Positions 22,501-58,189 of a stretch of 64,000 nt of DNA are shown in pieces. The position numbers were made by a program, and so were the translations under genes. The notes under the pieces are model-generated. The model saw nothing but the letters and a program-made list of their open reading frames with translations, did not search any database and was not told the DNA's origin. The DNA is from an uncultured beta proteobacterium (GTDB taxonomy: Bacteria > Pseudomonadota > Gammaproteobacteria > Burkholderiales > SG8-41). The stretch is from the NCBI GenBank assembly GCA_963808765.1, contig CAWEHH010000037.1, forward strand, positions 86,999 through 150,998. Reading direction: 5' to 3'. Within the stretch, counting starts at the first letter, position 1. Every line of letters begins with the position of its first letter.

Positions 22501-22620
22501 GGGGCGGCGCTCGCCTTCGGACTCGGGCCTCGCCGCCCACGAACAGAAGGAAACCATGGTTTCCCTCCGTAACCTCCTTTCCTTTGTTGCGCGTCGGATG
22601 CGAATCCGACACGCTGCTAG
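22497..22620 (+). repeat. 124-bp CTAG-bounded repeat, copy A (left of IS701)
   Basis: Identical to 24077..24200; contains a GC hairpin, the GGAAACCATGGTTTCC palindrome, the anti-SD tract and a GTCGGATGCGAATCCGAC palindrome. Confidence 0.95.
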
Positions 22621-24076
22621 TTGTACTGTGTCACGGTTAATGCCATCATGCCGGGATCTTCATTAGCGGGGGTGAAGATTCATGGCAGATCTTGCAGAGT
22701 TTGATCGTTATATGGCGCATTTGTGTGAAGGACTGGGCTACTCGACTCGTCATCAGAGTTTGCTCGAGTATTGCAGCGGACGGATGTTGCCGATCCAGCG
22801 TAAGAGCGTGGAGCCGCTCGCGGCGCATGCTGATCCGCTGAACGTTCCTGCGAAACATCAGGCGCTGCATCACTTCGTGGCGAATGCGCGCTGGTCGGAT
22901 CGGGGACTGCTGGAGCGCATTCGACAATACGTCGAGCCGCACTTGGGTCTGGAGCACGGCGTCTATTGGATCATTGACGACACTGCGCATCCGAAGTGTG
23001 GCCGGCATTCGGTGGGCGTCGCACGGCAATACTGCGGCAGGCTCGGCAAGCAGGACAACTGTCAGGTGGCGGTGAGCTTGTCGTTGGCCACGGCCGAAGC
23101 CAGTGTGCCCGTGGATTACCAGCTGTATCTGCCGCAAGATTGGGCGAGCGATGTGAAGCGCAGGCGCGAAGCGAAAGTACCGGAGACGGTGCGCTTTGCG
23201 ACCAAGGCGCAGATCGCGCTGCAGCAGATCCGGGCAGCCCAGGAACGCGGGGTTGCGCCGGGTATCGTGCTGGCCGACGCGGGATACGGCAGAGACACGG
23301 CATTTCGCGAAGCTGTGGATGAGCTGGGGCTTACCTATGCAGTGGGAGTGAGCTCGGACATCACGGTATGGGCGCCGGGTAGCACTCCGATGCCGACGAC
23401 ATCGGCTCCAGGCCGAGGCCGGCCACCGACACGCCTGCGCCGCGGGCCGGGCCATGAGCCGCTGAGCGTGAAGCAACTCGCCTTGGCGCTGAAGCGCTCG
23501 GCGTGGAAGCGAGTCGCTTGGCGTGAAGGTACGAATAAAGTGCTCTCTTCGCGCTTTGCACGGGTGCGGGTGCGCGCGGCGCATCGCGATTACCTGCGAA
23601 CGAGCCTGCGTGAAGAGCAGTGGCTGCTCATCGAATGGCCACTCAAAGAAGCCGAGCCCACGAAGTATTGGCTGTCGAATCTGCCGGTCGATATAAGCAT
23701 CAGCCATCTGGTCAACACCGCGAAGATGCGCTGGCGCATCGAACAGGACTACCACGAGCTTAAATCCGAATTCGGCTTGTCTCATTACGAGGGCCGCGGC
23801 TGGACTGGCTTTCACCATCACGCAACGGTGTGCATCGCCGCCTACGGCTTTCTACTCGCACAGCGACTGCAGAATGCTTCCAAAAAAAACTCCAATCGAC
23901 CAACGGCGCTTGCCCTACCCGAAGATTACAGACCTCGCGGCAGCCGGCCGAGCGCAGCGCCATGTGCCGGACTCGATACCCACACTGCGCCATCTCGTGA
24001 GCACCGAGATCGCGCGTCGACTTCAACGATGCCCGTGCTGCGGAGCGGTCGCTCGGCGAGCGTGACACAGTACAGA
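22621..24076 (+). mobile_element. IS701-family insertion sequence
   Basis: Terminal IRs TGTACTGTGTCACG / CGTGACACAGTACA flanked by CTAG; contains the DDE transposase. Confidence 0.9.
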
Positions 24077-24080
24077 CTAG
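22682..24080 (+). CDS. IS701-family DDE transposase (stop probably supplied by the flanking CTAG)
   Basis: RKSVEP, IIDDT, SVGVARQYCGRLGKQDNCQ, DAGYG, RWRIEQDY...LSHYEGRGW. Confidence 0.9.
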
Positions 24081-24200
24081 GGGGCGGCGCTCGCCTTCGG
24101 ACTCGGGCCTCGCCGCCCACGAACAGAAGGAAACCATGGTTTCCCTCCGTAACCTCCTTTCCTTTGTTGCGCGTCGGATGCGAATCCGACACGCTGCTAG
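24077..24200 (+). repeat. 124-bp CTAG-bounded repeat, copy B (right of IS701)
   Basis: Exact direct repeat of 22497..22620. Confidence 0.95.
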
Positions 24201-24728
24201 GGAGCGCTGCTGGTGCTGCCGGTGCGCAACGTGAAGGGTCTGATCGTGCCTGCGCACGCGAAGCCCGGCGCGGGGAATCGGTGGGCTTACTTGGAGAGAA
24301 CATGCCGATAGCGCGTTTCATCGTGGGGATGCTCTCAGCCGGAATGGCAGCGGGGGGCGCGGGACTGGCATCGGGCCAGGACTATCCGAACAAGCCGATA
24401 CGCATCTTTGCCTCCACCGCCGGGGGAGGAACCGATTTCGCGGCGCGCGTGCTGGCGCGGGGGCTTGCGCCCGGTCTTGGCCAGCCGGTAGTCGTGGAGA
24501 ATCGCCCGGCGTTCATCTCGATCGAGACCGTGTCGAAGGCGCCGCCCGACGGCTACACGCTGCTGGTGATCGGTGTGCCGCTTTGGCTCGCGCCGTACAT
24601 GCAGGACAACGTTCCGTGGGATCCGGTTAGAGATTTTCAGCCGGTTACGACCCTGACCCGGCAGCCCACGTTCCTGGTCGTGCATTCAGCACTGCCGGTC
24701 AGGTCAGTGAAAGAGTTGATTGACCTAG

Positions 24729-26846: not shown

Positions 26847-28475
26847 ATGCCCAATGCCGTCGAGGTTCTAGCTGAAGCGTTTCAGAACGCCGGCACGCAC
26901 TTTATCGCCGGAATTCCCGGGGAACAGGCGACGCTCGACCTGATAGAGGCCGCGCGCAAGCGCGGAATGCGCTTCATCCTCGGCAAGGCGAGACCGCGGG
27001 CGCGCTGCTCGCTTCGACCTGGGGCGAGATCACCGGTTCGCCCGGCGTGTGCCTGTCGACGCGCGGTCCCGGTGCGGCGAGCATGGTGAATGGCGTGGCG
27101 CATGCGTGGATCGATCGCTGTCCGCTCATCGCGATCACGGATCAATACCCGGCGCCCGCCTACCTGACCGGCTCCCACATGCGCCTGGATCAGGTCGGGC
27201 TCTACGCGTCCGTATGCGAAATGGAGCACAGCCATCGACGCCCGCACGGTGCGGCAGCAGGTGCGCCGCGCCATTCGCATCGCGACCGCGCATGCGCCCG
27301 GCCCGGTGCACCTCGCTGTGCCCTCCAGCGAGAAAGCGCTGGCCGCCGGCGATTACGCGAACGACGTTCCGCTGGTTCCTGATCCAGCGGTGATCGCTGC
27401 CGACAGGAGCGCACTGGAGGCACCCCTACAGATGCTGAAGGCGGCTCGGCGACCTGTCCTGCTGGTCGGGCTCGGTGTGCTGTGGAGCAACGCCTGCGCC
27501 GAGCTCGTGTCACTGGCCGAGCGGCTGGGAGCCCCCGTGCTCACCACCGCGAAGTGCAAGGGCGTTATCTCCGAGGATCATCCGCTGAGCGGCGGTTGCC
27601 TGCGAGGCGGCGCATTGGAGCGCAAGCTCGTGGCCGAGGCGGACCTTATCGTGACGATCGGCCTCGATCCGGTCGAGTTGCACGCGGACCGATGGCCGTA
27701 CACGGCGCCGGTGTTGGCGCTGTCAACTGTGCCCGGCCTTGACGGAGAAATACCGGCCACCGCCGAAGTGGTGGGCGATCTCAAGAGCATCCTCGACGGG
27801 CTCGGCAAGTGGGGGCCCGAAGGAACGAACTGGGGCGAGCGCGCTGCTCGCGCGTTCCGCGAAGGCATCGCTGCGCAACTCGATACGCCGAGCCGCGGGC
27901 TCTCGCCGCAGCGCCTGTTCGACGTCGCGCGCAGCGTGCTTCCCCGCGATACGATTGCGACGGTCGATGCCGGGGCCAGCCATTCGATAGGCGCCCAGAA
28001 ATGGCTGTCGTACGGTCCGAAGGAGTTCCTCGCCTCCAATGGTCTCGCCACCATGGGATTCGCGGTACCCGCGGCCATCGCCGCGCGCATTGCTCACCCC
28101 GAGCGGCCGGTTGTGGCCTTCGTCGGCGACGGGGGATTCCTGGTGGCGCCGGCCGAGCTGCAGACGTCGGTGCGCGAGAACCTGCCGATCGTCGTCGTCG
28201 TTCTCGACGACGGCGAGCTCGGTGCGATGCGGGTCAGACAGGACTTGAGGGGGCTGCAGCGCTATGGCACGCAAATCGGCGGCATCGACTGGGAGCATCT
28301 CGCCAGGGGTTTTGGCGCGGACGGTACCGTCGTCGACACCGAGAAGGCGCTCGGGGACGCGCTAACCGGCGCGATGCGCACCCGACGCACTACGCTCATC
28401 GCGGCACGCATGGACACGTCGGGCTATGTCGATCAGTTCAGGGCGATGTGGGGCAAAGACCGCGACGCTTCCTGA
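26847..28475 (+). CDS. ThDP-dependent enzyme, copy 2 (frameshifts near 26990 and 27210)
   Basis: Clear paralog of 7672..9312; GDGGF...VVLDD motif. Confidence 0.85.
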
Positions 28476-28631
28476 CCTGACTTGCCGGGCGTGACGTCTT
28501 CGGACCGAGTTGAGTCGTCAGCGGCGCGGGCGAGCGCAAGGACTACCAGTGACAACAGGACGCGCTAGAAGCGGGAAGCCCGATGACGCGAAGACCGCAG
28601 AGGCAGCGCGAAGTAGAGGCAACTGTGATGC

Positions 28632-28801
28632 GCAAATACTCGCGGCAATCGAAGCGATCGCGGCCCATTGTGAATCGTCTTCGGCCGCGTTCTCGAATAC
28701 CAGGCGGACCGCGCGTTCCCGGACTTCCGGGGAAAACCTCTTCGACGTATTGTTCATGACTCCTCAAGAATTGGAGTCTCCGGGAATCCCGGGGCGGTTC
28801 A
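28632..28801 (-). mobile_element. Truncated IS3-family left end with orfA start
   Basis: TGAACCGCCCCGGG terminus; MNNTSKRFSPEVRERAVRLV...SQWAAIASIA, then truncated. Confidence 0.8.
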
Positions 28802-28940
28802 AAGCGCGAAGCCGATCCGTGTTACAGAATCCACGCGCCGCGGCTTGACCCGTCGCTCGATGTAATGGGCGAGCTGCTTTCGGAGGAGTAAGTAAGCTAA
28901 CGTGCCGCACCGCCCGTGCCTTCGCAGCCTCGCGAGCGCG

Positions 28941-29072
28941 AGCGAGCCAAAGGAAAGGAGTTTACGGAGGAAAACCCCTTCAGCTGCGAGCTGAAGCGAG
29001 CCGAAGGAAAGGAGGTTACGGAGGAAAACCTGGGTTTTCCTCTGTTCATATTGATGGGTGGCGCGCCACCCC
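28941..29072 (-). repeat. Dispersed anti-SD repeat, copy C (core present twice in tandem), just 3' of tRNA-His
   Basis: Minus strand GAACAGAGGAAAACCCAGGTTTTCCTCCGTAACCTCCTTTCCTT, then a second TTTTCCTCCGTAAACTCCTTTCCTT. Confidence 0.85.
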
Positions 29073-29092
29073 GCCGAACACGGTGAGGCAAG

Positions 29093-29169
29093 TGGGGTGG
29101 CTGACGGGACTCGAACCCGCGACAACCGGAATCACAATCCGGGACTCTACCAGCTGAGCTACAGCCACC
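29093..29169 (-). tRNA. tRNA-His (GTG)
   Basis: GGTGGCTGTAGCTCAGCTGGTAGAG...GATTGTGATTC...GGTTCGAGTCCC...CCA, with encoded G-1. Confidence 0.97.
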
Positions 29170-29200
29170 GTCGGGAGAAACGGAACGCCTGTGGGAGGTG

Positions 29201-29277
29201 TGGCGCGCCCGGCGGGACTCGAACCCACAACCCCCGGCTTAGAAGGCCGGTGCTCTATCCGATTGAGCTACGGGCAC
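29201..29277 (-). tRNA. tRNA-Arg (TCT)
   Basis: GTGCCCGTAGCTCAATCGGATAGAG...CCTTCTAAGCC...GGTTCGAGTCCC...CCA. Confidence 0.97.
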
Positions 29278-29346
29278 TCGGCTCGCGTTTGCGCGGTAGT
29301 TCTTCCGCATCCGACAGGATACGGAGGACCTCGAAAAGGCCGCGTA

Positions 29347-29376
29347 ATGATACCCTTCGCGCCTCCGCGGGGTCAA
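29347..29376 (-). promoter_or_regulatory. Candidate sigma70 promoter of the tRNA pair
   Basis: TTGACC-18 bp-TATCAT followed by a GC-rich discriminator. Confidence 0.55.
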
Positions 29377-29422
29377 TTGAAACCGCAAGCGTGATAAACC
29401 AGTGACCAATGTCTTAGATTCC

Positions 29423-29451
29423 TTGCCGCCCCTGTGCATTTCTGATATTAA
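29423..29451 (+). promoter_or_regulatory. Candidate sigma70 promoter of dksA
   Basis: TTGCCG-17 bp-TATTAA. Confidence 0.45.
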
Positions 29452-29483
29452 ACCGCTTTTTCTACGGGACGCTCCGGAAGGCC

Positions 29484-29909
29484 ATGCCCTCAGAAATACT
29501 GCATAAAGCGATTCCTCCGTACAAGCCGAAGGGCAAGGAGGAATACATGAGTGCGAGGCAGCTCGCCTACTTCCGCAAGATGCTGGAAGAGATGAAGCGC
29601 GACCTCTCGCAGGACATCGACCGCACCGTCCATACGATGCAGGACGAGGCGACGATCTTCGCCGATCCCAACGACCGCGCGAGCCAGGAATCCGACATGT
29701 CGCTCGAGCTCCGGAACCGCGACCGCGAGAGGAAGCTCATCAAGAAGATCGACGAGACGATCGGGCGCATCGATTCGGGCGAGTATGGCTACTGCGATTC
29801 CTGCGGCGTGGAGATCGGCTTGAAACGACTGGAAGCCCGGCCGACGGCGACGCTCTGCATCGACTGCAAGACGCTCGACGAATTGAGAGAACGGCAGGTC
29901 GCGAAGTAG
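29484..29909 (+). CDS. dksA: RNA polymerase-binding transcription factor DksA
   Basis: DPNDRASQE coiled-coil tip; CDSC...CIDC zinc finger. Confidence 0.97.
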   Translation: MPSEILHKAIPPYKPKGKEEYMSARQLAYFRKMLEEMKRDLSQDIDRTVHTMQDEATIFADPNDRASQESDMSLELRNRDRERKLIKKIDETIGRIDSGEYGYCDSCGVEIGLKRLEARPTATLCIDCKTLDELRERQVAK

Positions 29910-29935
29910 CCGGCCCGTTCAACCCTCCCGGAAGC

Positions 29936-29968
29936 AAAAAGGGGCAGCCGCGGCTGCCCCTTCTCTTT
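29936..29968. terminator. Likely bidirectional intrinsic terminator between convergent dksA and pnp
   Basis: AAAAA-GGGGCAGCCG CGGCTGCCCC-TTCTCTTT. Confidence 0.75.
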
Positions 29969-30019
29969 GGTGCGCCCCGCAGGGCGCACTGACTCTCTGC
30001 GAGCGGCGAGCGGAACCCG

Positions 30020-32170
30020 CTACTGCACCGTTTGCGCTTCGGTCTGCTGCTGTGGCTGTTGAGGCTGAGGCTCCCGCTGCTGTGCTTCCTGCGCCGCAGC
30101 CTTCATGGACAGACGCAGGCGGCCTTTCTCGTCCGCTTCGAGTACCTTCACGCGCACCTGCTGGCCTTCCTTCAGATGGTCGGAGACGGCGTTCACGCGC
30201 TCGTTCGCGATCTGCGAGATGTGGAGCAGTCCGTCACGGCCCGGCAACACGCTGACGATCGCACCGAAATCGAGGAGCTTGAGCACCGTGCCGTCGTAGA
30301 TCTTGCCGACTTCCACGTCCGCGGTGAGTTCTTCGATCCGCTTTCTGGCCGCTTCGCCGCCTTCGGACGAAACGCATGCGATCGTGACCGTGCCGTCGTC
30401 CTGGATGTCGATCGTCGTCCCGGTTTCTTCCGTAATGGCGCGGATCACCGCCCCGCCCTTGCCGATCACGTCGCGGATCTTGTCCGGCTTGATCTTCATC
30501 GTGATCATGCGCGGCGCGTAAGCGGAGAGCTCCGAGCGCGGGCTGTCGATCGCCTCTTTCATTTTCCCGAGAATGAGCATGCGCCCTTCGCGCGCCTGTA
30601 GCAGCGCGGCGTGCATGATCTCTTTCGTGATGCCCTGGATCTTGATGTCCATCTGAAGCGCGGTGACGCCGCGGTCGGTGCCGGCAACCTTGAAGTCCAT
30701 GTCGCCGAGATGGTCCTCGTCGCCGAGGATGTCCGTGAGCACCGCAAAGCGGTTGCCTTCCTTGATGAGACCCATCGCGATGCCCGCGACGTGCGCCTTC
30801 ATCGGCACGCCCGCATCCATGAGCGCGAGACATCCGCCGCACACCGAGGCCATCGAGCTCGAGCCGTTCGACTCGGTGATTTCCGAGACGACGCGCAGCG
30901 AATACGCGAACTCTTCGGCGCTCGGCAGCACGGCCAGCAGCGCGCGCTTGGCAAGACGGCCATGGCCGATCTCGCGGCGTTTTGGAGACCCGACGCGGCC
31001 CGTCTCGCCCGTGGCATACGGCGGCATGTTGTAATGCATCATGAAGCGCTCGCGGTATTCGCCCTGGAGCGCATCGATGATCTGCTCGTCGCGCGAGGTA
31101 CCGAGCGTCGCGGTGACCAGCGCCTGCGTCTCACCGCGCGTGAAGAGCGCCGTCCCATGCGCGCGCGGAAGCACGCCCGTGCGGATGCTGATCGGACGCA
31201 CCGTGCGCGTGTCGCGGCCGTCGATGCGCGGCTCGCCGTCGAGGATCTGATTGCGCACGATCTTCGCTTCGATGTTGCTGAACTCGTTCGCGACCACCTG
31301 AGCATGGTCGGACGTGGAACCCTCGGGCACGAGCTCCTGGGTCACGCGCTGCGCGATCTCGTCGATGCGCACGCGGCGATCCTGCTTGCGGTGAATCTGA
31401 TACGCCTGCCGCAGATCGTTTTCTGCGGCCTGTGTGAGTCGATCGATGAGGCCCTGATCCTTCTGCGGGGGCGCCCAGTCCCATACCGGCTTGCCAGCCT
31501 CTTCGACCAGCTCGTGAATGGCGTTGATCACCGCCTGCATCTGCTCGTGACCGTAGACGACGGCGCCGAGCATCACGTCTTCGGGCAGCTCGTGGGCCTC
31601 GGACTCCACCATGAGCACCGCCTGCTGCGTGCCCGCGACGACCAGATTGAGCTGCGAGCTTTCGAGCTCCGTCGCCGTGGGATTGAGAGAATACTGTCCA
31701 TCGGCAAAACCCACTCTCGCCGCGCCGATCGGCCCGTTGAAGGGAATGCCGGAGATCGCGAGCGCCGCCGACGCCCCGATCATCGCCGGAACGTCGGAGT
31801 CGACTTCGCTGTTCGACGACATCACCGTCGCGACAATCTGCACTTCGTTGAAAAAGCCGTCCGGAAAGAGCGGCCGGATGGGCCGGTCGATGAGCCGGCA
31901 AGTGAGGATCTCCTTTTCCGAAGGACGGCCTTCGCGCTTGAAGAATCCACCGGGAATCTTCCCGGCGGCGTAGGTGCGTTCCTGGTAATCGACCGTGAGC
32001 GGGAACCAGTCCTGGCCGGGCTTTGCGCTGCGCGCGCCGACGACCGTGACCAGAACGACGGTATCTTCCAGATTGACGAGCACCGCACCGCTTGCCTGTC
32101 GCGCGATCTCGCCCGTCTCGAGCGTCAGTCGCTGACTGCCCCAAGTGAGTGTCTTGGTTATATGTTTCAT
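30020..32170 (-). CDS. pnp: Polyribonucleotide nucleotidyltransferase
   Basis: [29 protein letters not shown] and S1 domains. Confidence 0.98.
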
Positions 32171-32310
32171 GTTGTCCTTTGTCTGCAAATAAAAAAGACC
32201 GCGAAAAAGCGGTCTTCAGCGCAATGTGAGTTTCAATTGCTGGCGAGGCGAGCAGCGCGGCATGCGCCGCGCTCGAGATGCAGGCCCCAGAGTGCCATGC
32301 CCGGCACGCG

Positions 32311-32580
32311 CTACTTGCGCAGCCCGAGCCGCTCGATGAGTATCTTGTACTTATCCGCGTTCGTGCGCTTGAGGTAATCGAGGAGCTTGCGCCGCCGGCT
32401 CACCATGCGCAGCAAACCGCGACGTGAATGATGATCCTTGACGTGGGTCTTGAAGTGCTCCGTCAGATCACTGATGCGCGCGGTGAGTAGCGCGACCTGC
32501 ACTTCCGGAGAACCCGTGTCGCCCTGGCCGCGCTGGTAGTCCTGCATGAGTTGGGCTTTTTGCGTCTGGTTGACGGCCAT
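32311..32580 (-). CDS. rpsO: 30S ribosomal protein S15
   Basis: [13 protein letters not shown]...DHHSRRGLL...LGLRK; 89 aa. Confidence 0.98.
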
Positions 32581-32635
32581 CGAACTTAGCTCCCACTGAA
32601 AATCCGCGTATTCTACTCTGCTAAAACCCGTTTTC

Positions 32636-33571
32636 TCAACCAATTCGCGGCCTTGCGGCGACCAGACGCCGGGGCGCGATGCGGCCGGTCGAAGCGGCCT
32701 CGCCCACGCCGAGAAATGCTGCGCCCGGACCGTAGATGCGCACGAGCCCGTCCGGCACCGGCGTTGGAGATTGGATCGCCTGCCCCTGTTCAACCCGACG
32801 TGCCTCCTCGTCGCTTAACGCGACACGGGGAAGATCCGAAACGAGCGTGTCCACGGGCCGCAGACAGTCTGCCCGGCGCGCCTCGGGCAGCGTTTCGAGC
32901 GCCTCGAGGCCAATGGCCTCATCGACCTCGAACGGTCCGACTCGCGTCCGGCGCAACGAAGAGAGACAGGCGCCGCAGCCGAGCGCAGTTCCGATGTCCT
33001 CCGCCAGGGTGCGCACATAGGTGCCCTTGCTGCAGGCGACATGGACGACGAGCGCGTCGGCTTCCGCGCTCAGGAGATCGAGCGCGTGGATCTTCACCCG
33101 GCGCGCTTCCCGCGGCACGGTGATGCCCGCGCGGGCATAGGCGTAGAGCGGTTTGCCATCCCGCTTCAAGGCGCTGAACATGGGCGGCACCTGCTCGATC
33201 TCGCCCCGGAAGCGGGCGAGGACATCATCGAGCCGCGCAAGATCAGGCGCGACCGGCGAACGCGCGATCACCTCGCCCTCGAGATCACCCGTGGTCGTCA
33301 TGAGCCCGAGCCGAATGCCGGCGAGATAGGATTTGTCGGCGTCGAGCAGGGACCGCGCGAACTTGGAGGCCTCCCCGAACGCGAGCGGCAGCAGCCCCGT
33401 GGCAGCCGGATCGAGGGTGCCGGTGTGTCCCGCCTTCGCCGCGCCGAGCAGCGCCTTTGCGCGCGCGACTGCCCGCTGCGACGTGATGCCGGCGGGCTTG
33501 TCGAGGAATAGCACCCCGTCTAGTTGGTGAGCGGGGGCCGCAGAGCGGCGGGGTCCCCGCTCACGAAGCAT
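32636..33571 (-). CDS. truB: tRNA pseudouridine(55) synthase (start uncertain)
   Basis: [28 protein letters not shown]. Confidence 0.96.
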
Positions 33572-33648
33572 TCCGGCGCCCATTAGAATTTCCATCAATA
33601 AGTACGAGGCTCAGGACAGAACAGGCCCTTCGCCGCGCAGCGGTCAAT

Positions 33649-34020
33649 CTACTCTTCCCGTTGCTTCTGGCTGGCCACTGCTTCATCGATCAAATGCGAG
33701 AGCCGCACGCCGCGTTCGACGGACGTGTCGTAGCGGAAGTCGAGCTGCGGTACGACGCGAAGCCTCATGCGGTGGCCGAGCTGCGTGCGAAGGAAACCGG
33801 CGGCGCTTCTCAAGCCCGCGCTCGCATCATCGATCTTGCGCTCGTCGCCAAGCAGCGTGAAGAAGACCTTCGCGTGCGACTGGTCCGGGCTCACCTCGAC
33901 GCCGGTGATCGTCACCAGCTCCGGCACGCGGGGATCTTTCAGCTCGAGCCGCAGCAGATCTGCAAGCTCGCGCTGGATCTGCTCGGCGATGCGGCGGGCG
34001 CGAGTGAAGTCCTTGGGCAT
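33649..34020 (-). CDS. rbfA: Ribosome-binding factor A
   Basis: KDPR, AAGFLR, PQLDFRYD; position after infB. Confidence 0.96.
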   Translation of the reverse strand: MPKDFTRARRIAEQIQRELADLLRLELKDPRVPELVTITGVEVSPDQSHAKVFFTLLGDERKIDDASAGLRSAAGFLRTQLGHRMRLRVVPQLDFRYDTSVERGVRLSHLIDEAVASQKQREE

Positions 34021-34090
34021 GTGCGGAAGGAGTGAGGCGCAAGGCGGCGGCGGATTTACAGTCTACGCCTCCCGCCTCTTGCCTCCCGCC

Positions 34091-36679
34091 TCACAAGGTT
34101 CTCGCGACTTCCACCACCTCGTACACCTCGAGCTGATCGCCGACCTTGATGTCGTTGTAGCCCTTCAGCGAAAGTCCGCACTCGAAGCCCGATTTCACTT
34201 CGCGCACGTCGTCCTTGAAGCGCTTGAGCGAATCGAGCTCGCCCTCGTGGATGACGACGTTGTCGCGCAGCAGGCGGATTTTCGCGCTGCGGCGCACGAG
34301 GCCATCGACCACGTAGCAGCCGGCGACCGTACCGATCTTCGAGATCTTGAACACCTGGCGGATCTCCACCACGCCGAGCGTGTTCTCCTTGCGTTCCGGC
34401 GCAAGCATACCGGTCAACGCTGCCTTGATCTCGTCGACGGCTTCATAAATGATGTTGTAGTAGCGGATCTGAACGCTCGCCGATTCGGCGAGCTTGCGCG
34501 CTGCGGCGTCCGCCCGCGTGTTGAAACCGATCACCACGGCCTTCGACGCGATCGCGAGATTGATATCCGACTCGGTGATGCCGCCCACGGCCGCGTGCAC
34601 GACGTTGACCTTCACCTCGTCGGTCGAAAGCTTCGCGAGCGCATGCGTGAGTCCCTCGTATGAACCCTGCACGTCGGCCTTGATGATGAGCGACAGCGTC
34701 TTCTTCCCTTCGCCCATCTGGTCGAACATGTTTTCGAGGTTCGTCGCTTGCTGCTTCGCGAGCTTCACGTCACGGAACTTGCCCTGACGGAAGAGCGCGA
34801 TCTCGCGCGCCTTGCGCTCGTCGCCCAGTGCGATTACTTCCGAGCCGGCCACGGGAACGTCCGAAAGGCCAAGCACTTCAACCGGCAGCGAAGGACCCGC
34901 CGTGTCGATGGTATGTCCCGTCTCGTCGAGCAGCGCACGCACGCGGCCGAACACCGCGCCCGCGAGCAGCACGTCGCCGCGCTTGAGCGTTCCCGACTGC
35001 ACCAGCACCGTCGCTACAGGACCGCGGCCCTTGTCGAGCCGGGACTCGATCACGATGCCCTTCGCGAACGCCTCTTTCGGCGCTTTCAGCTCGAGCACCT
35101 CGGCCTGAAGCAGCAGGCGTTCGAGCAGATTATCGATGCCCTGGCCGGTCTTCGCCGAAACCTGCACGAACATCGTGTCGCCGCCCCATTCCTCGGGAAC
35201 GACCTCGTTCGACGCGAGCTCCTGCATGACGCGCTCGGGATTCGCTTCCGGCTTGTCGATCTTGTTGAGCGCGACCACGACCGGCACCTTGCCCGCCTTC
35301 GCGTGCGCGATCGCTTCCATCGTCTGCGGCATGACGCCATCGTCCGCCGCAACGACGAGAATCACGATGTCGGTGACTTTCGCGCCGCGTGCACGCATGG
35401 CCGTGAAGGCTTCGTGGCCCGGCGTATCGAGGAACGTGATCGTGCCGCGCGGCGTCTCGACGTGATAGGCGCCGATGTGCTGCGTGATCCCGCCCGCCTC
35501 CCCGCTTGCCACACGCGTGCGGCGGATGTAATCGAGGAGCGAAGTCTTGCCGTGATCGACGTGCCCCATCACGGTAACGACCGGCGCGCGCGGATCGAGT
35601 TTGAGCTCCGCATGCGCGGCTTCGCGTTCTTCCGCGAGATAGGCATCGGGGTCGTCCAGCTTCGCGCGCACCGCCTTGTGCCCCATCTCCTCGACGACAA
35701 TCATCGCGGTTTCCTGATCGATCACCTGGTTGATGGTCGCCATCGTGCCGAGCTTCATCATCGCCTTGATGACTTCGGCCGCCTTCACGCTCATCTTGTG
35801 CGCGAGATCGGCCACCGTGATCGTCTCGGGCACCACGATATCGCGCACCATGGGTTCGGGTGCCGCGAAGCCCGCCTGCATCTCGCCGTCATCACGATGT
35901 CCGTGCCGGCCCGCCTTGCGTTCGCGCCATCCCAGGCCACCGCTCGAATCCCCGCGCGTCTTGATCGTGCGCCGCTTGACGGCTTCGTCGCGCCACACGA
36001 CCTGCTTCGCGGGCTTCGGTTTCGCGGTCTTCTTGTCTGTCTTCTCGCCGGGCTTCGCACTCGGCTTGTGCAGCGTGCCTGCGACCGGCGGCTGCGCGGC
36101 CTGACCGGCTTCGGCTTGCACCGGGGGCGCCGCGGGCGCCTCGGCCTTCACCTGCGCCTGTTCCTCGACTTTCGCTTCGACTTTGGCCGCCTCCTCGGCG
36201 GCGGCGACCTGCGCGTCCGCGAGCTCCTTTTTGCGCCGTTCCTGGTCCGCCTTGCGCTCGATCTCTTCGGCCTGACGCGTCGCGAGCTCCGCCTGCTGGC
36301 GCGCTTCGGCCTCGCGCAGCGCGATCTGTGCATCGTCGAGCACCACCTTCGGCGCCTCGACGGGCTCCTGTTCGACGGTGTCGCGCTTCACCAGCACGCG
36401 CTTCTTGCGTACCTCGACCTGAATCGTGCGCGACTTGCCCGTTCCGTCCGATTTCTTGATCTCGGTGGTCTGCCGGCGCGTGAGCGTGATCTTCTGCTTG
36501 GCTTCCCTCGCTCCGTGGGATTTCTGCAGATACTCGAGGAGCTGGGTCTTGTCTTTTTCAGTGAGCGCCGTCTCGACAGTGAGCGCACGCGTGATGCCCG
36601 CCGCCTGCAACTGCTCGATCAGCAGCGTCGGCGGAAGGTTGAGCTCCTTAGCGAATTGGGTAACGTTGATTTGCGCCAT
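34091..36679 (-). CDS. infB: Translation initiation factor IF-2
   Basis: [24 protein letters not shown]. Confidence 0.98.
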
Positions 36680-36802
36680 CAGTGTCATTCAGTCTGCCGA
36701 TATCCCGGATATCTCTATCTAGCGCCGCGAGGCGCCTTGAGCGGAGGTTTAGCGTCGTGGAAGCGGCGGCAAGCCGGCGCTTCCCGACGCGTCGGTAGCC
36801 CT

Positions 36803-38287: not shown

Positions 38288-38308
38288 TCGAACTCCTTAC
38301 GGCACGCT

Positions 38309-38761
38309 TCAGATCGCGGGGACCAGCCGCGCCTTGTCCAGATTCGCGAGATCGAGCGTCACGATCCTGCCATCCACGTCGAGCTCGATCTTTCCGGCAC
38401 GCGTGTCGCGCAACACCCCCATGAAATTCCTTTGTCCTTCGAACGGCACGCGCAGCTTCACGCGCGCTGTGTGGCCGGCGAAGCGAACGAAATCCTGCTC
38501 TTTCCTCAGCAACCGATCGAGTCCCGGCGACGACACTTCGAGCCGGCCGTAATCGATGCTCTCGACTGCGAGCACGCGGCTCAGATGATTGCTGACCCGG
38601 GCGCAGTCTTCGACGTCGATGCCCTGCGGCTTATCGATGAACACGCGGAGCAGAGGCCCTTTTCCGGAACGCTCGAAATCCACGAGCTCGTAGCCGAGGC
38701 CCTGGAGCGTCGATTCCAGCAATTTCGGAAGATCTGCCGTCAATTCCTGCACCACAAACAA
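38309..38761 (-). CDS. rimP: Ribosome maturation factor RimP (start uncertain)
   Basis: [19 protein letters not shown]. Confidence 0.95.
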
Positions 38762-38790
38762 AAAATGGGCGAACCGCCCATCGTTTTTCT
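38757..38790 (-). promoter_or_regulatory. rimP leader hairpin with U-tract (attenuator-like)
   Basis: Minus strand ATGGGCG-GTT-CGCCCAT-TTTTTG immediately before rimP. Confidence 0.55.
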
Positions 38791-38839: not shown

Positions 38840-38952
38840 GGCCGCGGCACCTGCCGCGGCAAGAGTCCTTGCGGGCGACAAGCGCCCGCAGCCGCGGCTC
38901 GGTAAACGAACAGAGGGCAACCCATGGTTTCCCTCCGTAACCTCCCTTCCTT
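38840..38952 (+). repeat. Dispersed anti-SD repeat, copy D (upstream of lexA)
   Basis: CTGCCGCGGCAAGA...GCCGCGGCT...ACGAACAGAGGGCAACCCATGGTTTCCCTCCGTAACCTCCCTTCCTT. Confidence 0.88.
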
Positions 38953-41897: not shown

Positions 41898-41956
41898 CGA
41901 GATGCCATGGGAGGTGGACTGATCTGATTCCCCGAACGCAATGATCACAGTGAGAC

Positions 41957-42044
41957 GTCATCCCGGGCGTAGCGCAAGCACACAGAGCCGGGATCCAGAG
42001 CACAACTGAACAGCGCCTGGATTGCGGCTTCGCGCCGCAATGAC
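41957..42044. repeat. REP-like inverted doublet
   Basis: CGTCATCCCGG...CCGGGATCCAG...CTGGATTGCGG...CCGCAATGACG. Confidence 0.7.
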
Positions 42045-42148
42045 GATTTCGAGATCGCCGACATCTGCGTTTCTCGTTTCACGCTCTTCACTCTTCCCGC
42101 TTTTGAACGTTTCATCCTTCACTCTCTTCACTCCTTCATTTCTTCACC

Positions 42149-45100: not shown

Positions 45101-45233
45101 CGGCGCGCGGCTCCTCGGCGTCGAAGGCTACATGCAGAAGGAGAGCGGCGTGATCCACCTCATCGCGCGGCGTCTCGTCGATCACAGCCGCCTGCTCGGG
45201 CGGCTCGTCACCGCGTCACGGGATTTTCATTGA
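42149..45233 (+). CDS. dnaE2: Error-prone DNA polymerase DnaE2/ImuC (frameshift near 44562)
   Basis: [39 protein letters not shown]-terminal SRDFH. Confidence 0.95.
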
Positions 45234-45358
45234 GGGGGCGGCGCTCTGCCGCGGCAAGATTCCTCCGGGCGCAAGCGCCCGAGCCGCGGCTGGGTGGACG
45301 AACAGAGGGCACCCGACCGCTCCGCTCCCATGGTTTCCCTCCGTTACCTCCTTTCCTT
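45233..45358 (+). repeat. Dispersed anti-SD repeat, copy E (starts at the dnaE2 stop)
   Basis: AGGGGGCGGCGCTCTGCCGCGGCAAGA...ACGAACAGAGGG...CCATGGTTTCCCTCCGTTACCTCCTTTCCTT. Confidence 0.88.
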
Positions 45359-45406
45359 CCCCCCCAAAGTTCTGAACTAGGGCTCGTACCGATCGGACGA
45401 GAGTTG

Positions 45407-45647
45407 CTAACGAGCGCCCGAAAGTACGTTCGCGGCGACAGCCCTGTCCAGGCGCGCCGCCACGTTCTGTCCTGGCCCTCGGACCATTGATGTGAATACT
45501 AACGTGCGCTCGAAGGCTGCGTTCGCGGGGACAGCCTGTCCCAGGCGCGCCGCTGCGTTCTGTCCTGACCCTCGGACAATTGATGTGAATACTAACGTGC
45601 GCTCGAAGGCTACGTTCGCGGCGACAGCCTGTCCCAGGCGCGCCGCT
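45407..45647 (+). repeat. Tandem repeat, ~93-bp unit, ~2.6 copies
   Basis: Units start CTAAC at 45407, 45499 and 45592. Confidence 0.92.
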
Positions 45648-45673
45648 CACCGAAATGGGGTGGTTCTGACTAA

Positions 45674-46207
45674 CTACTCGTCCGGGATGTTCTCGCCGGG
45701 AAAGAGCTCGTCGGTGAACCCGAAGTCGCGCATGTCGCGGATGCGCATCGGGTAGAGGATGCCCATGAGGTGATCGACCTCGTGCTGCACGACACGCGCA
45801 TGGAAGTCCTTCACCGTGCGATCGATCGGCACGCCTTGCTGATCGAAGCCGCGGTAGCGCAGGTGCTTGTAGCGCGGCACGAGCCCGCGCATGCCGGGCA
45901 CGGAGAGGCAGCCCTCCCAGCCCTCCTCCATCTCTTCGCCGAGCGGTGTGAGCGCGGGATTCAGCAGGACCGTCTGCGGCACGGGCTCGGCGTCGGGATA
46001 GCGCGGATTGGATTCGAGCCCGAAGATCACGACCTGAAGATCGACCCCGATCTGCGGCGCCGCGAGCCCTGCTCCATTCAGCGCGCGCATCGTGTCGTGC
46101 ATGTCGGAAATCAGCGCGTGCAGCTCCGGCGTATCGAACGCTTCAACGCGGCGCGAGACACGCAGGAGCCGCGGGTCGCCCATGCGCAATACCGGTCTAA
46201 CGGCCAT
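45674..46207 (-). CDS. def: Peptide deformylase
   Basis: [21 protein letters not shown]. Confidence 0.96.
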
Positions 46208-55969: not shown

Positions 55970-57163
55970 TTGAATCCCCGTCTCGAGCGGCTGCAAACGT
56001 ACCCTTTCCAGAAGCTCAGCGGGCTTCTCGAAGGTGCCAAACCGGCGGCCGGGCTGAACCTGATCAACCTCTACATCGGGGAGCCCAAGCACCCGACGCC
56101 GGCGTTCATCAAGGAAGCGCTGATTGCGAATCTCGATGGGCTCGCCGTCTATCCACCGACGCTCGGTGGCGATGCGCTGCGCAATGCGATCGCCGATTGG
56201 ATCAGGAAACGTTACGGCATCAAGGCGATCGACCCGAACCGGCAGGTGATCCCCGTCACCGGCACACGCGAAGCGCTGTTCGCGATCGCGCAAGCCGTGG
56301 TGGACAACACGAAGCCCGATCCGATCGTCGTATGTCCCAACCCGTTCTATCAGATCTACGAAGGGGCCGCGATTCTCGCCGGTGCGCACGCCGTGTATCT
56401 GAACAGCCTGCCCTCGCGCAACTACGCCTTCGACTGGGAGGAGCTTTCCGCGGACGAGTGGCGGCGCACGCAGTTGATCTACGTGTGCTCGCCGGCAAAT
56501 CCCACCGGCCACCTGATGCCGCTCTCGGACTGGAAGGCGCTCTTCGCCCTCTCGGACAAGTACGGCTTCATCATCGCGTCCGACGAGTGCTACTCCGAGA
56601 TTCATTTCGACGAAGCGCATCCGCCGCTGGGCGCGCTCGAAGCCGCGCAGCAGCTCGGCCGGGAAGGTTTCCCTCGCCTGATCGTGTTCTCGAGCCTGTC
56701 GAAGCGTTCCAGCGTGCCGGGCATGCGCTCGGGATTCGTCGCGGGCGACGCGAACGTCATCCAGAAGTACTACCTGTACCGCACGTATCACGGCTGCGTC
56801 ATGAGCCCGCCGGTGCAGGCGGCCAGCATCGCGGCATGGAAAGACGAAGCGCACGTGGTCGAGAACCGGCGCCTCTATCGGGAAAAGTTCGATACCGCGC
56901 TGCGCGTTCTCCGCCCGCACGTCGAAGTGGAAACGCCGGACGCCGCGTTCTACCTGTGGGTGCACACGCCCATCCCCGATCCCGAATTCACGCGCCGGCT
57001 CTACGAGACGCAGGCCGTCTCGGTCCTGCCGGGCAGCTATCTTGCGCGCGAGTCCCGGGGCGTCAATCCGGGCACCGATCGGGTCCGCATCGCACTCGTG
57101 AGCTCGACCGAGGAATGCGCGGAGTCCGCGCGGCGCATCCGGGATTTCTTTCTCGGGCTTTGA
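55970..57163 (+). CDS. dapC: Succinyldiaminopimelate transaminase
   Basis: [36 protein letters not shown]. Confidence 0.93.
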
Positions 57164-57285
57164 TCATGTGGAACGCGAGCGGCCACTGCCGCGCGGCGCA
57201 ATGCGACGCAGGCATCCGGCGGGAAACGACGGGCCGCGCTTCGGCGCGGTCCTCAGGAGCGGATAACGAGGTACGAGGTAACGAG

Positions 57286-58110
57286 ATGACGGACGAGCTG
57301 CGCAAGACCATCGATGCCGCGTGGGAGAATCGCGCGTCGCTTTCGCCCGAGACGGCGGGGACCGAACTGCGCGAAGCGGTGCTCGAGACGATCGAGCTCC
57401 TCGACGGGGGCAAGCTCCGCGTGGCCGAAAAGATCGGTGGCGAATGGGTCACGCACCAATGGGCGAAGAAGGCCGTGCTGCTCTCGTTCCGCCTCGAAGA
57501 CAACGAAGTGATCGAGGACGGCTATACCCACTATTACGACAAGGTGCCCTCGAAATTCGCGGGCTATGACCGCGCGACGTTCCAGGAATGCGGCTTTCGG
57601 GTCGTTCCGCCCGCGGCGGTGCGCTATGGCGCCTACATCGCGAAGAACGTCGTGCTCATGCCCTCGTTCGTGAACATCGGCGGCTACGTCGATGAAGGCA
57701 CGATGGTGGACACCTGGGCGACCGTCGGCTCGTGCGCGCAGATCGGGCGCAACGTGCATCTGTCGGGCGGCGTGGGCATCGGCGGGGTGCTGGAGCCGCT
57801 CCAGGCGAATCCGACCATCATCGAAGACAACTGTTTCGTCGGCGCGCGCTCCGAGATCGTGGAAGGGGTGATCGTCGAGGAAGGTTGCGTGATCTCCATG
57901 GGTGTCTTCATCGGCGCGAGCACGAAGATCTACCGGCGCGATACGGGTGAGGTGCTCTACGGACGGGTGCCGGCCGGTTCCGTGGTGGTGCCGGGCTCAC
58001 TGCCTTCTGCCGATGGGCGCTACAGCCTCTATTGCGCGGTCATCGTGAAGCAGGTGGACGCTCAGACGCGGGCGAAGACCAGCATCAACGAGCTGCTGCG
58101 CAGCGATTGA
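57286..58110 (+). CDS. dapD: Tetrahydrodipicolinate N-succinyltransferase
   Basis: [40 protein letters not shown]. Confidence 0.97.
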
Positions 58111-58120
58111 TGAGCGGGCC

Positions 58121-58189
58121 TTGCTAACCGTGCGGCGCTCATCCCCTCCCCGAGCGCTCCGCTTCCCCGAGGCCCCTCCGACCCCTTCC
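58121..58189 (+). repeat. Degenerate relative of the dispersed anti-SD repeat (copy F)
   Basis: GCGGCGCTC...CCCGAGCGCTCCGCTTCCCC...CCCTCCGACCCCTTCC aligns with copy E (CCCGACCGCTCCGCTCCCA...CCCTCCGTTACCTCC). Confidence 0.5.

Follow-up and report, generated by a model that had tools for sequence, protein, structure and literature searches.

Copies of the repeat in the window

The window, a 64-kb stretch of DNA, contains several copies of a dispersed repeat whose layout is seen directly and agrees with the preliminary description: a 5' GC hairpin is followed by ACGAACAGAGG, a second hairpin and a pyrimidine tail. The tail corresponds to the 20-mer CTCCGTAACCTCCTTTCCTT, for which six matches with up to three mismatches are observed in the window (plus strand 22565, 24145, 38933 and 45339; minus strand 28950 and 29004), none being expected by chance (100 shuffles). 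The second hairpin and the tail form a module, M2, which occurs with other modules in the following features.

22497..22620, plus strand: full mosaic unit A-M2-M3, ending in CTAG (fold z = -3.1)
22501-22539, plus strand: palindrome A of the first unit, overlapping the TAG stop (22498-22500) of the HpcH aldolase gene (nhmmer A, 32.1 bits)
22541-22584, plus strand: M2 hairpin and CU tail of the first unit (nhmmer M2, 53.2 bits)
22591-22612, plus strand: hairpin M3 of the first unit
22621..24076, plus strand: IS element (DDE_5, IS701-like), outside the repeat, sitting in CTAG between two identical mosaic units
24077..24200, plus strand: second mosaic unit, 124/124 identical to 22497-22620
28950..28977, minus strand: second M2, 5'-truncated, 3' arm and tail only (profile positions 18-45)
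29004..29092, minus strand: local GC hairpin adjoining the 3' end of tRNA-His, and a complete M2 (29004-29047) behind it
29093-29168, minus strand: tRNA-His, 45 nt from the complete M2 downstream
38849..38952, plus strand: module C double hairpin (38849-38902) and M2 (38908-38952), in the divergent rimP/lexA intergenic region
45230..45358, plus strand: unit behind the dnaE2 stop, with TGA (45230-45232), the 5' part of A, C (45244-45293) and M2 (45300-45358)
45425..45673, plus strand: B-family tandem units with a 93-nt period, a different, larger repeat family adjoining the M2 unit
58121..58189, plus strand: reported 'degenerate copy', unsupported (no M2, C or M3 match)

Copies had been reported at 22501, 24081, 28941-29072, 38840, 45233 and 58121, and the first five of these are borne out by the CTCCGTAACCTCCTTTCCTT matches. 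At 58121-58189, no M2 is detected even with nhmmer --max at E<=100, and A and B appear only at E-values of 0.9 and 0.09, over 9-13 positions. The doubled core described on the minus strand is real, its second M2 being truncated at the 5' end. The copies had also been said to start at stop codons or at a tRNA 3' end, which is correct for the HpcH aldolase TAG, dnaE2 and tRNA-His, but not for the copy at 38840, located in the divergent rimP/lexA promoter region.

The presence of the element varies at orthologous sites between species, which indicates mobility. The rimP/lexA copy is a lineage-specific insertion: only G000 and G003, its closest relative, have it, and seven alignable species do not. 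At the dnaE2 site, where the M2 hairpin has a 15-nt insertion, M2 is found only in G000 and G002 among 12 species, and M2 follows tRNA-His in 7 of the 12 genus species examined. Among the sister species, no empty site was found that is near enough in sequence to fix the insertion boundaries; the flanking genes are only 74-86% identical and the intergenic DNA cannot be aligned. Part of the region is present in 20 public sequencing runs, none of which contains half of its words. These runs correspond to soil metagenome contigs and one metatranscriptome, the only RNA run, also as contigs and with a share of 0.08 of the words; in four of the runs, none of the short mixed-organism contigs listed as matching 28000-46000 spans a repeat copy.

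The M2 hairpin and its pyrimidine tail

In the constant core, M2 (about 45 nt), an imperfect 13-bp hairpin precedes a C/U-rich tract that is unpaired. The hairpin variant GGAAAACC/GGTTTTCC, previously described as compensatory, is indeed so, since 72 of 114 distinct copies have G-C at pair 10-24 and 38 have A-T. Within the genome, 54 double-change cells are observed, versus 18 +/- 3 in shuffles. At the tRNA-His site, 5 of the 13 pairs show compensatory changes across species, a number that none of 500 shuffles reaches. Judging from these substitutions, the M2 hairpin is maintained by compensatory change. Uncompensated mismatches are also common: the pairs 11-23 and 12-22 are C.U in 21-24 of the roughly 113 distinct copies. 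In the set selected with the exact 20-mer, two pairs are unpaired in 21/90 and 17/90 copies, and almost no covariation is observed. A near-fixed A.C mismatch in the dispersed copies is equivalent to a G.U wobble on the opposite strand, and for 142 of 166 distinct dispersed copies the hairpin of that strand is the more stable one. This predicted stability is no argument for the CU-tail strand being the one that folds.

The match of the tail with the 16S rRNA anti-Shine-Dalgarno (SD) sequence, proposed in the preliminary description, is only partly upheld. The tail shares 10 nt, ACCTCCTTTC, with the 16S rRNA 3' end of two sister species; the assembly itself has no 16S rRNA gene. However, CCTCC is not conserved across species: it is kept in 3 of 9 copies downstream of tRNA-His, the other six exhibiting CCTCT or CCTCG, and many groEL-linked copies exhibit CCCCCTTCC in its place. 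The tail is the best conserved part within the genome (93-99% per column), a value inflated by ascertainment, as the copies were selected for a complete tail. The CU tract is unpaired in folds of the 38840 copy, whereas one fold pairs it with the 5' arm of its own hairpin. Two other identities were discarded by eye: the core-site consensus of an integron attC does not fit, and a small coding ORF is contradicted by the unconserved loop ATG and by loop indels that break the frames.

Mosaic units and their placement in the genome

This 5.49-Mb assembly contains 175 complete M2 copies at 149 loci, 11 of these loci being inside called genes. Scans with the model, which give lower bounds, count at least 137 copies in G000, 121 in G001, 113 in G012 and 86 in G011. 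The 20-mer is abundant in 11 of 12 sister species (59 copies in G002, 99 in G009, none in G008), and in none of 12 other genera of the family or 16 other families. M2 is not free-standing: it is one module of head-to-tail, REP/BIME-like mosaic units (A2, A23, A2A, (A2)n3 and similar), in which all stranded modules are co-oriented. The only opposite-strand entries are due to the palindromic M2 matching both strands, and no inverted pairs (HH or TT dimers, REPINs) were found among the unit architectures. The ends of full units show no inverted repeat by eye; many units have TA or TAG at both ends, which is indistinguishable from the palindrome's own TAG...CTA. The genome contains 226 profile matches of module A and 235 of the B family. 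M3 was rejected as an abundant independent REP, since most matches of the regular expression GTGTCGG...CCGACAC (224 of 312 'alone' loci) are located within genes and are due to chance.

Module A is closely associated with stop codons. It lies within 5 nt of a co-oriented stop in 38 of 57 A-alone loci and in 41 of 59 A..M2 loci, and the abutting stops are TAG in 44 of 55 cases (7 TGA, 4 TAA), while TAG accounts for 1057 of 4405 stops genome-wide (24%). Of the 119 anchored copies of A, 44 have TA before the G run and 26 have GTA; M2 has no such tag. The loci favour convergent (43) and co-directional (81) intergenic regions and avoid divergent ones (12), and convergent regions are enriched (42/136 M2 loci versus 505/3256 intergenic regions). 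In sense loci, M2 starts at a median of about 60 nt behind the stop; in antisense loci, the tail is separated from the stop of the gene facing it by a median of about 52 nt. Two M2 loci are behind tRNA genes. The assertion that the pyrimidine strand is always in the transcript fails genome-wide, the 81 co-directional loci being divided into 56 sense and 25 antisense. The bias of about 2:1 is real, but it disappears in copies without an A-type 5' end: sense and antisense loci are in the ratio 29:15 with an upstream A, 9:1 with a long A..B, 9:2 with C and 8:8 for the others, the last being small numbers. The orientation bias thus travels with the GTAG-type 5' palindrome A, not with the CU tail, and both this bias and the starts at stop codons are observed because the palindrome carries TAG, not because of the CU tract. 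The strand of M2 is not linked to the sign of the local GC skew (71 versus 78, i.e. 36+35 versus 40+38), for which a 45-contig draft is a rough proxy.

According to the passages of Di Nocera et al. (2013, PMC3733652) that deal with GTAG REPs, GTAG is kept in more than 90% of the members of these families, the flanking ORF often takes its TAG stop from the GTAG end, and a head-to-tail arrangement is rare or absent. As far as these passages go, the overlap of module A with TAG stops, where the TAG is the stop of the upstream gene, is already a published trait of GTAG-type REPs. Like those REPs and BIMEs (PMC3733652, same passages), the repeat comprises short GC-rich palindromes in high copy number, extragenic, mostly in co-directional or convergent regions, and clustered in mosaics. 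Both A and M2 are short imperfect palindromes, extragenic and present in more than 100 copies, as is usual for REPs. In contrast to the GTAG REPs of these passages (PMC3733652), the units here are head-to-tail and GTAG pairs with the 3' CTAC instead of being unpaired. Moreover, no RAYT is flanked by the units, and M2 lacks a GTAG or CGTC tag and exhibits a pyrimidine tail that is long, conserved and single-stranded.

No mobilising enzyme was found for the repeat, neither as a linked RAYT, nor as TnpB, nor through a matching IS end. This genome encodes two RAYT-like and three IS200-like Y1 proteins, but the linked RAYT/TnpA gene that the preliminary description had suggested looking for was not found: 19 Y1_Tnp loci are present in 9 of the 13 genus genomes (incomplete assemblies), and the 1.5 kb on either side of them contain no A match and one M2 match. 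The repeat that flanks the C16 RAYT is a different one. In the incomplete assemblies of G002 and G009, no Y1_Tnp match accompanies the 59 and 99 copies, while G008 has a RAYT-like gene and no copies. A TnpB/omega-RNA system was rejected, as the assembly contains no TnpB. The IS at 22621-24076 was also rejected as mobiliser, since it simply inserts into CTAG and has inverted repeats that do not resemble the ends of the repeat. It is present in 15 full copies, and the 14 with a fully seen left flank all carry (C)TAG or TAAG/TTAG there. PATEs, which derive from IS200/IS605 elements, have no terminal inverted repeats, hairpins near both ends and a strand-specific placement 3' of a short fixed sequence. 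The full unit resembles them by its hairpins near both ends (A and M3) and its placement 3' of TAG, and the resident IS200 copies are also located 3' of CTAG. It differs from PATEs in that the IS200 ends are unlike A or M2, TnpB is absent and no correlation with the GC-skew sign is observed.

The groEL-linked homologue and the nature of the repeat

An M2-like element is present about 100 nt behind groEL in related bacteria of the same family, which is a new result, and M2 is homologous to the middle part of this conserved groEL 3'UTR element of related genera. It is found on the same strand, about 100 nt downstream, at 13 of 29 groEL loci of the family, and the single matches in five genomes of four other genera are all behind a GGM-tailed gene. 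The element comprises a hairpin P1 that pairs the stop codon, then P2 (equivalent to M2), the C/U tract and an intrinsic terminator. Its structure has 29 pairs, with 96.9% of the cells paired, and 9 pairs and 25 cells are compensatory; none of 500 shuffles reaches nine compensatory pairs, and slid controls give 2-5. As in a 3'UTR-type element, a conserved structure is located on the sense strand between the stop codon and an intrinsic terminator. In public genomes, 22 of 52 non-amplified pattern matches follow a GGM-repeat gene, and 18 of these 22 are then followed by a terminator. The assembly, which is 62% complete, lacks groEL, and the presumed ancestral copy is therefore missing from it. 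RNAalifold also predicts pairs between the CU tract and the GGM-codon repeats of groEL.

In Rfam, only the two tRNAs of the window reach the gathering threshold. For 20 repeat loci, one window copy, five long units and 14 groEL 3' regions, no relevant family emerges at E<=1-5, so no family matches the repeat or these regions. The literature search, which had subscription journals and supplements outside its scope, gave no description of the repeat, nor, for Betaproteobacteria, of an element in the groEL 3'UTR. The undescribed structured 3'UTR RNA that had been proposed is strengthened by the groEL homologue, its strong covariation and the lack of an Rfam match. The specifics of an SD mimic are weakened by the variable CCTCC, by an orientation bias of only about 2:1 that follows palindrome A and by the better folding of the opposite strand in the dispersed copies. 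Two known systems are comparable. In the sections of PMC5688073 on the RF02278 sRNAs of Burkholderia (ncS03, ncS05, ncS27 and ncS62), these are betaproteobacterial 'toxic' double hairpins with CU-rich anti-RBS tracts. The resemblance extends to the small size, the hairpins, the unpaired CU-rich tracts complementary to the RBS and the several dispersed homologues per genome, whereas Burkholderia has 3-5 copies with their own promoters (PMC5688073, same sections) and the repeat has more than 100 copies embedded in 3' regions. The RF02278 model gives no match even at E<=1, and the conserved copy here is a groEL 3'UTR, not a free-standing gene. The icaR 3'UTR of Staphylococcus aureus contains a C/U-rich anti-SD-like motif in an mRNA 3'UTR (PMC3868564), but it is a single, gene-specific Firmicute element, neither a hairpin-plus-tail module nor a repeat. 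By analogy, pairing of the 3'UTR with the SD of its own mRNA could apply to the groEL copy.

Based on these results, we consider it probable that a conserved 3'UTR RNA module has been amplified as a genus-wide, REP-like dispersed repeat, in mosaics with the GTAG-type palindrome A. By parsimony, the dispersed copies would descend from the groEL copy. The module would have been amplified in this genus to well over 100 copies per genome; M2 is embedded among other repeat modules, the most important being palindrome A, whose TAG forms or overlaps the stop of the upstream gene. The groEL element may function at the RNA level, as an sRNA derived from the 3'UTR or in cis; in a putative cis role, its CU tract would pair with a purine-rich sequence such as the SD. 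The dispersed copies, if transcribed, would act like REPs, as 3' structures, and the repeat may have spread via a putative trans-acting enzyme and local tandem duplication.

The repeat could also be selfish REP/REPIN-type DNA, mobilised in trans by a RAYT or IS200-like HUH transposase acting on single-stranded hairpins, the groEL copy being an old insertion and the anti-SD likeness a coincidence. We regard this as rather unlikely. The GTAG-like head and GC palindrome of module A, with TAG as stop (as published, in the passages of PMC3733652 cited above), are what such DNA would exhibit, and module A does look like a GTAG-tagged REP. The preference for convergent and co-directional over divergent regions (43 and 81 versus 12), the Y1 proteins encoded, the IS200 copies 3' of CTAG and the opposite-strand wobble, which fits single-strand folding untied to mRNA, point in the same direction. 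However, linkage is missing (no A and one M2 near the 19 Y1_Tnp loci, a different repeat beside the C16 RAYT), Y1_Tnp presence and copy number do not correspond in the incomplete assemblies of G002, G009 and G008, orientation is independent of the GC-skew sign, and head-to-tail units are rare for REPs in those passages (PMC3733652). Furthermore, a cross-genus groEL copy with its own covariation and pairing of the stop-codon region is hard to explain at the DNA level.

If M2 were only a transcription terminator or mRNA 3'-end stabiliser, the hairpin would be selected and the tail would have no sequence-specific role. The location at gene 3' ends, at the short median distances given above, the enrichment in convergent regions and the compensatory changes of the hairpin would be accounted for. 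Nevertheless, this is unlikely: there is no U tract after the hairpins, the tail starting AACCTCC, and an intrinsic-terminator scan reported none of them. A canonical terminator is kept at 2 of 149 dispersed copies, the same scan finding one at only 12 of 600 random genes. At groEL, the element is upstream of a separate canonical terminator, and the tail is the best conserved part within the genome, albeit with the inflation due to the choice of copies. It seems even more doubtful that every copy is a functional anti-SD RNA module, selected in the sense strand of 3'UTRs and pairing with SDs in cis or trans. Of the 81 co-directional loci, 25 are antisense, the bias of 56:25 that would argue for such a module is lost without module A (8:8, small numbers), and the two loci behind tRNA genes have no translation to regulate. 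The 10-nt identity with the 16S 3' end and the unpaired tract in the folds of the 38840 copy are offset by the replacement of CCTCC in six of nine tRNA-His copies and, by CCCCCTTCC, in many groEL copies, and by the fold in which the tract pairs with the 5' arm of its own hairpin. The groEL homologue, laid out like a 3'UTR-derived sRNA (hairpin, CU tract, terminator), is consistent with such a function, as are the analogues in the cited parts of PMC5688073 (RF02278) and PMC3868564 (icaR).

The amplified 3'UTR module that we favour could be given a bolder form, which is quite improbable: an uncatalogued groEL 3'UTR element would have become a bacterial 'SINE-like' repeat in at least two lineages, serving as a portable, translation-sensing 3'UTR switch. 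The stop-codon-pairing hairpin, the M2 hairpin and the CU tract would be installed behind 100 or more unrelated genes. As the first hairpin has to be melted by any ribosome that terminates there, the module would expose or hide the SD-complementary tract. Many genes would then have their expression coupled to the traffic of ribosomes or to an RNA partner that they share.

The starts at stop codons and the transcription-oriented placement have a mundane cause, namely a GTAG-type palindrome carrying TAG. For annotation, the units account for many spurious long ORFs, TAG-terminated gene ends and IS-attracting CTAG sites in this lineage. If the groEL element is a functional RNA, it would constitute a new 3'UTR motif, belonging to a core heat-shock operon and widely conserved in Rhodocyclales-/Burkholderiales-type bacteria. 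Its massive amplification in certain lineages would then be a natural experiment in which a regulatory RNA module became a dispersed repeat, or in which a repeat was domesticated.

The repeat in the window and its modules

The preliminary description had reported a dispersed repeat at six sites of the window, and the described layout was seen at five of them when the sequence was read. The sixth claimed copy, at 58121, matched none of the module profiles that we built, even with all filters off, and was not counted. The 20-mer CTCCGTAACCTCCTTTCCTT, the best conserved stretch of the core module M2 (a hairpin of about 13 bp followed by a pyrimidine-rich tail), exhibits six matches in the window at three mismatches or fewer, with 0 expected from 100 dinucleotide shuffles. 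The neighbouring genes, as named earlier, were upheld by Pfam (HpcH-type aldolase, TctC receptor, RimP, LexA, DnaE2, peptide deformylase and DapD), and ARAGORN verified a tRNA-His and a tRNA-Arg.

Repeat units and adjoining features in the window
22501: repeat copy; 22497-22620 is identical to 24077-24200 over the full 124 nt
22621-24076: insertion sequence (IS) of 1,456 bp between the identical units, with a DDE_5 (IS701-like) transposase and inverted repeats TGTACTGTGTCACG
24081: repeat copy
28941-29072, minus strand: doubled repeat copy
33512-33558, minus strand: B family
38840: repeat copy
38952-39040: unusually long pyrimidine-rich run (AACACCTTCTCTTCTCCTCACGCCTCTCGCTCTCACCTCCCACCTCGCACC...) 3' of the 38840 copy, up to lexA
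42107-44758 and 44559-45233: the two frames of dnaE2
45233: repeat copy
45425-45673: B family, 93-nt tandem

The contig 34 paralogue C34_156688 continues with the same pyrimidine-rich run as the 38840 copy. The frame switch of dnaE2 lies at 44559-44758, and the alignment with orthologues extends to 45232; the gene is a frameshifted pseudogene, or else the assembly is in error here.

The source assembly (G000) is a 5.49-Mb draft of 45 contigs with 64.4% GC, rated 62% complete, and the window lies on contig 37. Genome-wide, the 20-mer occurs 181 times at four mismatches or fewer, including 54 exact occurrences. A profile of 45 positions, comprising GAACAGAGG, the hairpin and the 20-mer, gave 203 non-overlapping M2 matches. 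The tail is complete in 175 of these, which collapse into 149 loci when tandem arrays are merged (133 singles, 9 doubles, 4 triples and 3 quadruples). M2 is just one module of a mosaic repeat.

Modules found with M2 in the source assembly
A: GC palindrome (G)TAGGGGGCGGCG...CGCCGCCCTAC; 226 matches, 79 alone
C: double hairpin starting with the 5' part of A; 22 matches
B family: unit of about 115 nt, often in tandem; 235 matches
M3: 3' hairpin GTGTCGGA...TCCGACAC, 3' of many units

The usual architectures are A-M2, A-M2-M3, (A-M2)n-M3, C-M2 and a long form of about 240 nt, A...B-M2 tail-M3. The B-family unit, GTTCTGC..GGCCTCGTACA..GATGGAAATACT..CGTTCGCGGGGACCCCGCTGCTCCGCAGCCCCCGCTCACC..GGTGGTTCTAA, is only slightly biased in orientation (65:47) and matches no Rfam family. 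M3 was rejected as an independent repeat family, since its regular expression alone falls mostly in coding sequence (224/312 loci).

Conservation, orientation and anti-SD likeness of M2

At two mismatches or fewer, the 20-mer is present in 11 of 12 sister species, in 7 to 145 copies. The sister species G008 lacks it, as do the 12 further genera in the family and the 16 further families in the order that were searched; this tally includes G019, an unpublished genome that enters no other count. Both insertions and losses of M2 have occurred. Downstream of dnaE2, M2 is found only in G000 and G002 among 12 species, with different flanking hairpins, and in the rimP/lexA spacer it is confined to G000 and G003, the species closest to it, being absent from seven species in which the spacer is otherwise alignable. 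Some other copies have been retained: downstream of tRNA-His, M2 is present in 7 of the 12 species examined, and the contig of an eighth ends there.

The M2 hairpin is kept by compensatory change. Among the nine tRNA-His copies, 5 of the 13 hairpin pairs exhibit such change, in 11 cells as against 3.6 +/- 1.4 after shuffling; 0 of 500 shuffles reach this value, and slid controls give 0-1 pairs. Within G000, 54 double-change cells are observed, compared with 18 +/- 3 in shuffles. Most of them correspond to a single G-C/A-T switch dividing two subfamilies, and C.U mismatches without compensation are frequent.

With regard to orientation, genes were called with a purpose-written dicodon-based caller (5,487 calls, 77% coverage, imperfect), to which the ARAGORN tRNAs were added; the contexts are nearly unchanged without the tRNAs.

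Context of the 149 M2 loci
Both neighbours co-directional, M2 sense: 56
Both neighbours co-directional, M2 antisense: 25
Convergent neighbours: 43
Divergent neighbours: 12
Within called genes: 11
Contig edge: 2

The pyrimidine strand had been said always to lie in the transcript. Genome-wide, the bias is only about 2:1 in favour of sense (56:25, binomial p = 0.0008; 28:14 by a GC-phase method that uses no gene caller), and the strand of M2 is independent of whether the local GC skew is positive or negative. The bias varies with the upstream module, from 9:1 for the long A..B form and 9:2 for C to 29:15 for A and 8:8 for anything else. The first base lies no more than 5 nt from a co-oriented stop codon at 38 of 57 loci with A alone and at 41 of 59 with A..M2. 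The abutting stops (n=55) comprise 44 TAG, 7 TGA and 4 TAA; TAG accounts for 1057 of all 4405 stops in the genome. At the junction, ...NTA is followed by GGGGGCGGCG, and the resulting TAG is base-paired to a CTA that is conserved in the 3' arm of the palindrome. This GTAG-type palindrome explains the stop-codon overlap and most of the orientation bias. For GTAG-type REPs, PMC3733652 reports that the terminal GTAG often provides the TAG stop codon of the adjoining ORF and that the elements are found mostly between unidirectional and convergent ORFs.

The likeness of the tail to the anti-Shine-Dalgarno (SD) sequence stands in part. Ten nucleotides of the tail, ACCTCCTTTC, also occur at the 16S rRNA 3' end (GGATCACCTCCTTTCTAG) in two sister species, the source assembly containing no 16S gene, but the CCTCC core is not maintained from one species to the next: in the tRNA-His tails only A.CTC is invariant, and CCTCC is kept in three of the nine copies. 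This lack of conservation argues against a general role of the dispersed copies as SD mimics, as do the antisense orientation of one third of the co-directional loci and the location of two loci 3' of tRNA genes. Furthermore, the opposite strand folds better: the near-fixed A.C mismatch of dispersed M2 becomes a wobble pair on that strand only, and the opposite-strand hairpin is the more stable one in 142 of 166 distinct copies.

A conserved homologue of M2 in the groEL 3'UTR

A covariance model of M2 was run over 41 genomes of the family. It gave more than 85 matches in each of four members of the genus (the most scored being at least 137), three weak matches in G008, and one weak match each (E 1e-4 to 3e-7) in 11 of the 36 other-genus genomes. 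All five of the other-genus matches inspected are located just 3' of a gene ending in ...GGMGGMGGM-stop, the GroEL tail. With this model, 13 of 29 groEL loci, the unpublished genome being excluded, carry the element about 100 nt downstream on the same strand. By genus, these are 3/4 loci in g1 (the genus of the window), 3/3 in g13, 4/4 in g10, 2/4 in g11 and 1/1 in g9, with 0/4 in each of g3, g4 and g5 and 0/1 in g12. One g4 genome exhibits the element at a second GroEL-like locus. The G000 assembly itself contains no groESL.

The layout is constant, comprising a first hairpin (P1), a short linker, a second hairpin (P2), a C/U-rich tract and a canonical intrinsic terminator; some genomes exhibit a tandem pair of elements. 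The 5' arm of P1 consists of the final groEL codons and TAA, P2 is the M2 hairpin, and the tract (for example ACCUCCCCUCC and GCCCCCUUCCUU) is unpaired. The groEL 3'UTR contains a conserved M2 homologue with strong structural covariation. In 11 groEL 3' sequences from five genera outside that of the window, 96.9% of the 318 cells of the three-hairpin structure are paired, compared with 90.9% in shuffles, and compensatory change affects 9 of 29 pairs and 25 cells, compared with 5.6 and 8.8. None of 500 shuffles reaches 9 pairs or 25 cells, and slid controls give 2-5 pairs. The compensatory pairs include the penultimate codon of groEL with the 3' arm of P1. A search of Rfam with the groEL 3' regions returned no family at threshold.

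In an alignment of the other-genus groEL loci (A3, columns 12-26 with 116-127), the C/U-rich tract is paired by RNAalifold, chiefly in G-C and G-U pairs, to the G-rich codons of the GGM repeat, and these codons could be an alternative partner of the tract to the SD. Just behind the groEL terminator of one locus of the sister species G012 (L196, 3344-3625) lies a group II intron (RF02001, 139 bits; RF01998, 58 bits).

In public genomes, a pattern for one hairpin variant yielded 114 loci. Scattered over MAGs labelled Sulfuritalea, Rhodocyclaceae, Rhodocyclales, Burkholderiales and Betaproteobacteria are 52 copies, 22 of which follow a GGM-repeat gene, with a terminator next in 18 of these 22. 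A single MAG, labelled Alphaproteobacteria, contains 65 copies and is a second amplified lineage. There, the flank upstream of the element codes on the element's own strand 47 times and on the other strand 9 times, because convergent spacers are preferred (23 such spacers) and not because of an orientation bias (5 sense vs 5 antisense in co-directional spacers).

Mobile elements and origin of the repeat

Movement by an HUH/RAYT-type nuclease had also been proposed, but the defining evidence, linkage to a gene with the Y1 transposase domain, was not obtained. None of modules A, M2, B and C lies within 1.5 kb of the five Y1 genes of G000 (three IS200-like and two RAYT-like), and 19 Y1 loci in 9 of 13 genus genomes exhibit no A match and one M2 match. 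The incomplete MAGs G002 and G009 contain 59 and 99 copies of the 20-mer without a Y1 match, and G008, also an incomplete MAG, has a RAYT-like gene and no copy. No TnpB was found in the G000 assembly. On contig 16 (about 323,450-324,290; L099), a RAYT-like gene is flanked by another repeat, AATGGGACAGACCCATTT, with at least nine genome copies; this second REP/RAYT pair looks classical and is not related to the M2 repeat.

Full-length copies of the DDE_5 IS number 15 genome-wide, and every flank inspected is CTAG or a close variant, the tetranucleotide being present on both sides. This IS was drawn to the CTAG at the unit junction; as mobiliser of the repeat it was rejected, its ends being unrelated to the repeat. 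Two IS200-like elements of about 670 nt (L095 and L096, on contigs 45 and 41) each lie directly 3' of CTAG, with a left-end hairpin CCCCGGCTCTGCCGGGG and a right end finishing in ATGGTTAC. These ends are unlike those of the repeat.

The repeat is a real, genus-wide mosaic, in which module A and the mosaic arrangement are nothing unusual for REP/BIME elements. As far as literature searches and Rfam 15 go, the M2 module itself is new, and so is its connection with a structured element, conserved in the groEL 3'UTR, that bears an anti-SD-like tract. As the groEL copy is found in six genera, whereas amplification is seen only in one genus and one unrelated MAG, the groEL copy is probably ancestral to dispersed M2. 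Its position on the sense strand between stop codon and terminator, and the covariation of P1 with the coding sequence, suggest that it acts as RNA. The A-M2-M3 unit strikingly mirrors the groEL layout, with a stop-codon hairpin, P2, a CU tract and a last hairpin; the likeness may come from convergence, a common function or a common origin. That the unit is a portable, translation-sensing 3'UTR switch seems quite unlikely to us. The dispersed units would be REP-like passengers which, where transcribed, may give the transcript a structured 3' region along with a pyrimidine tract.
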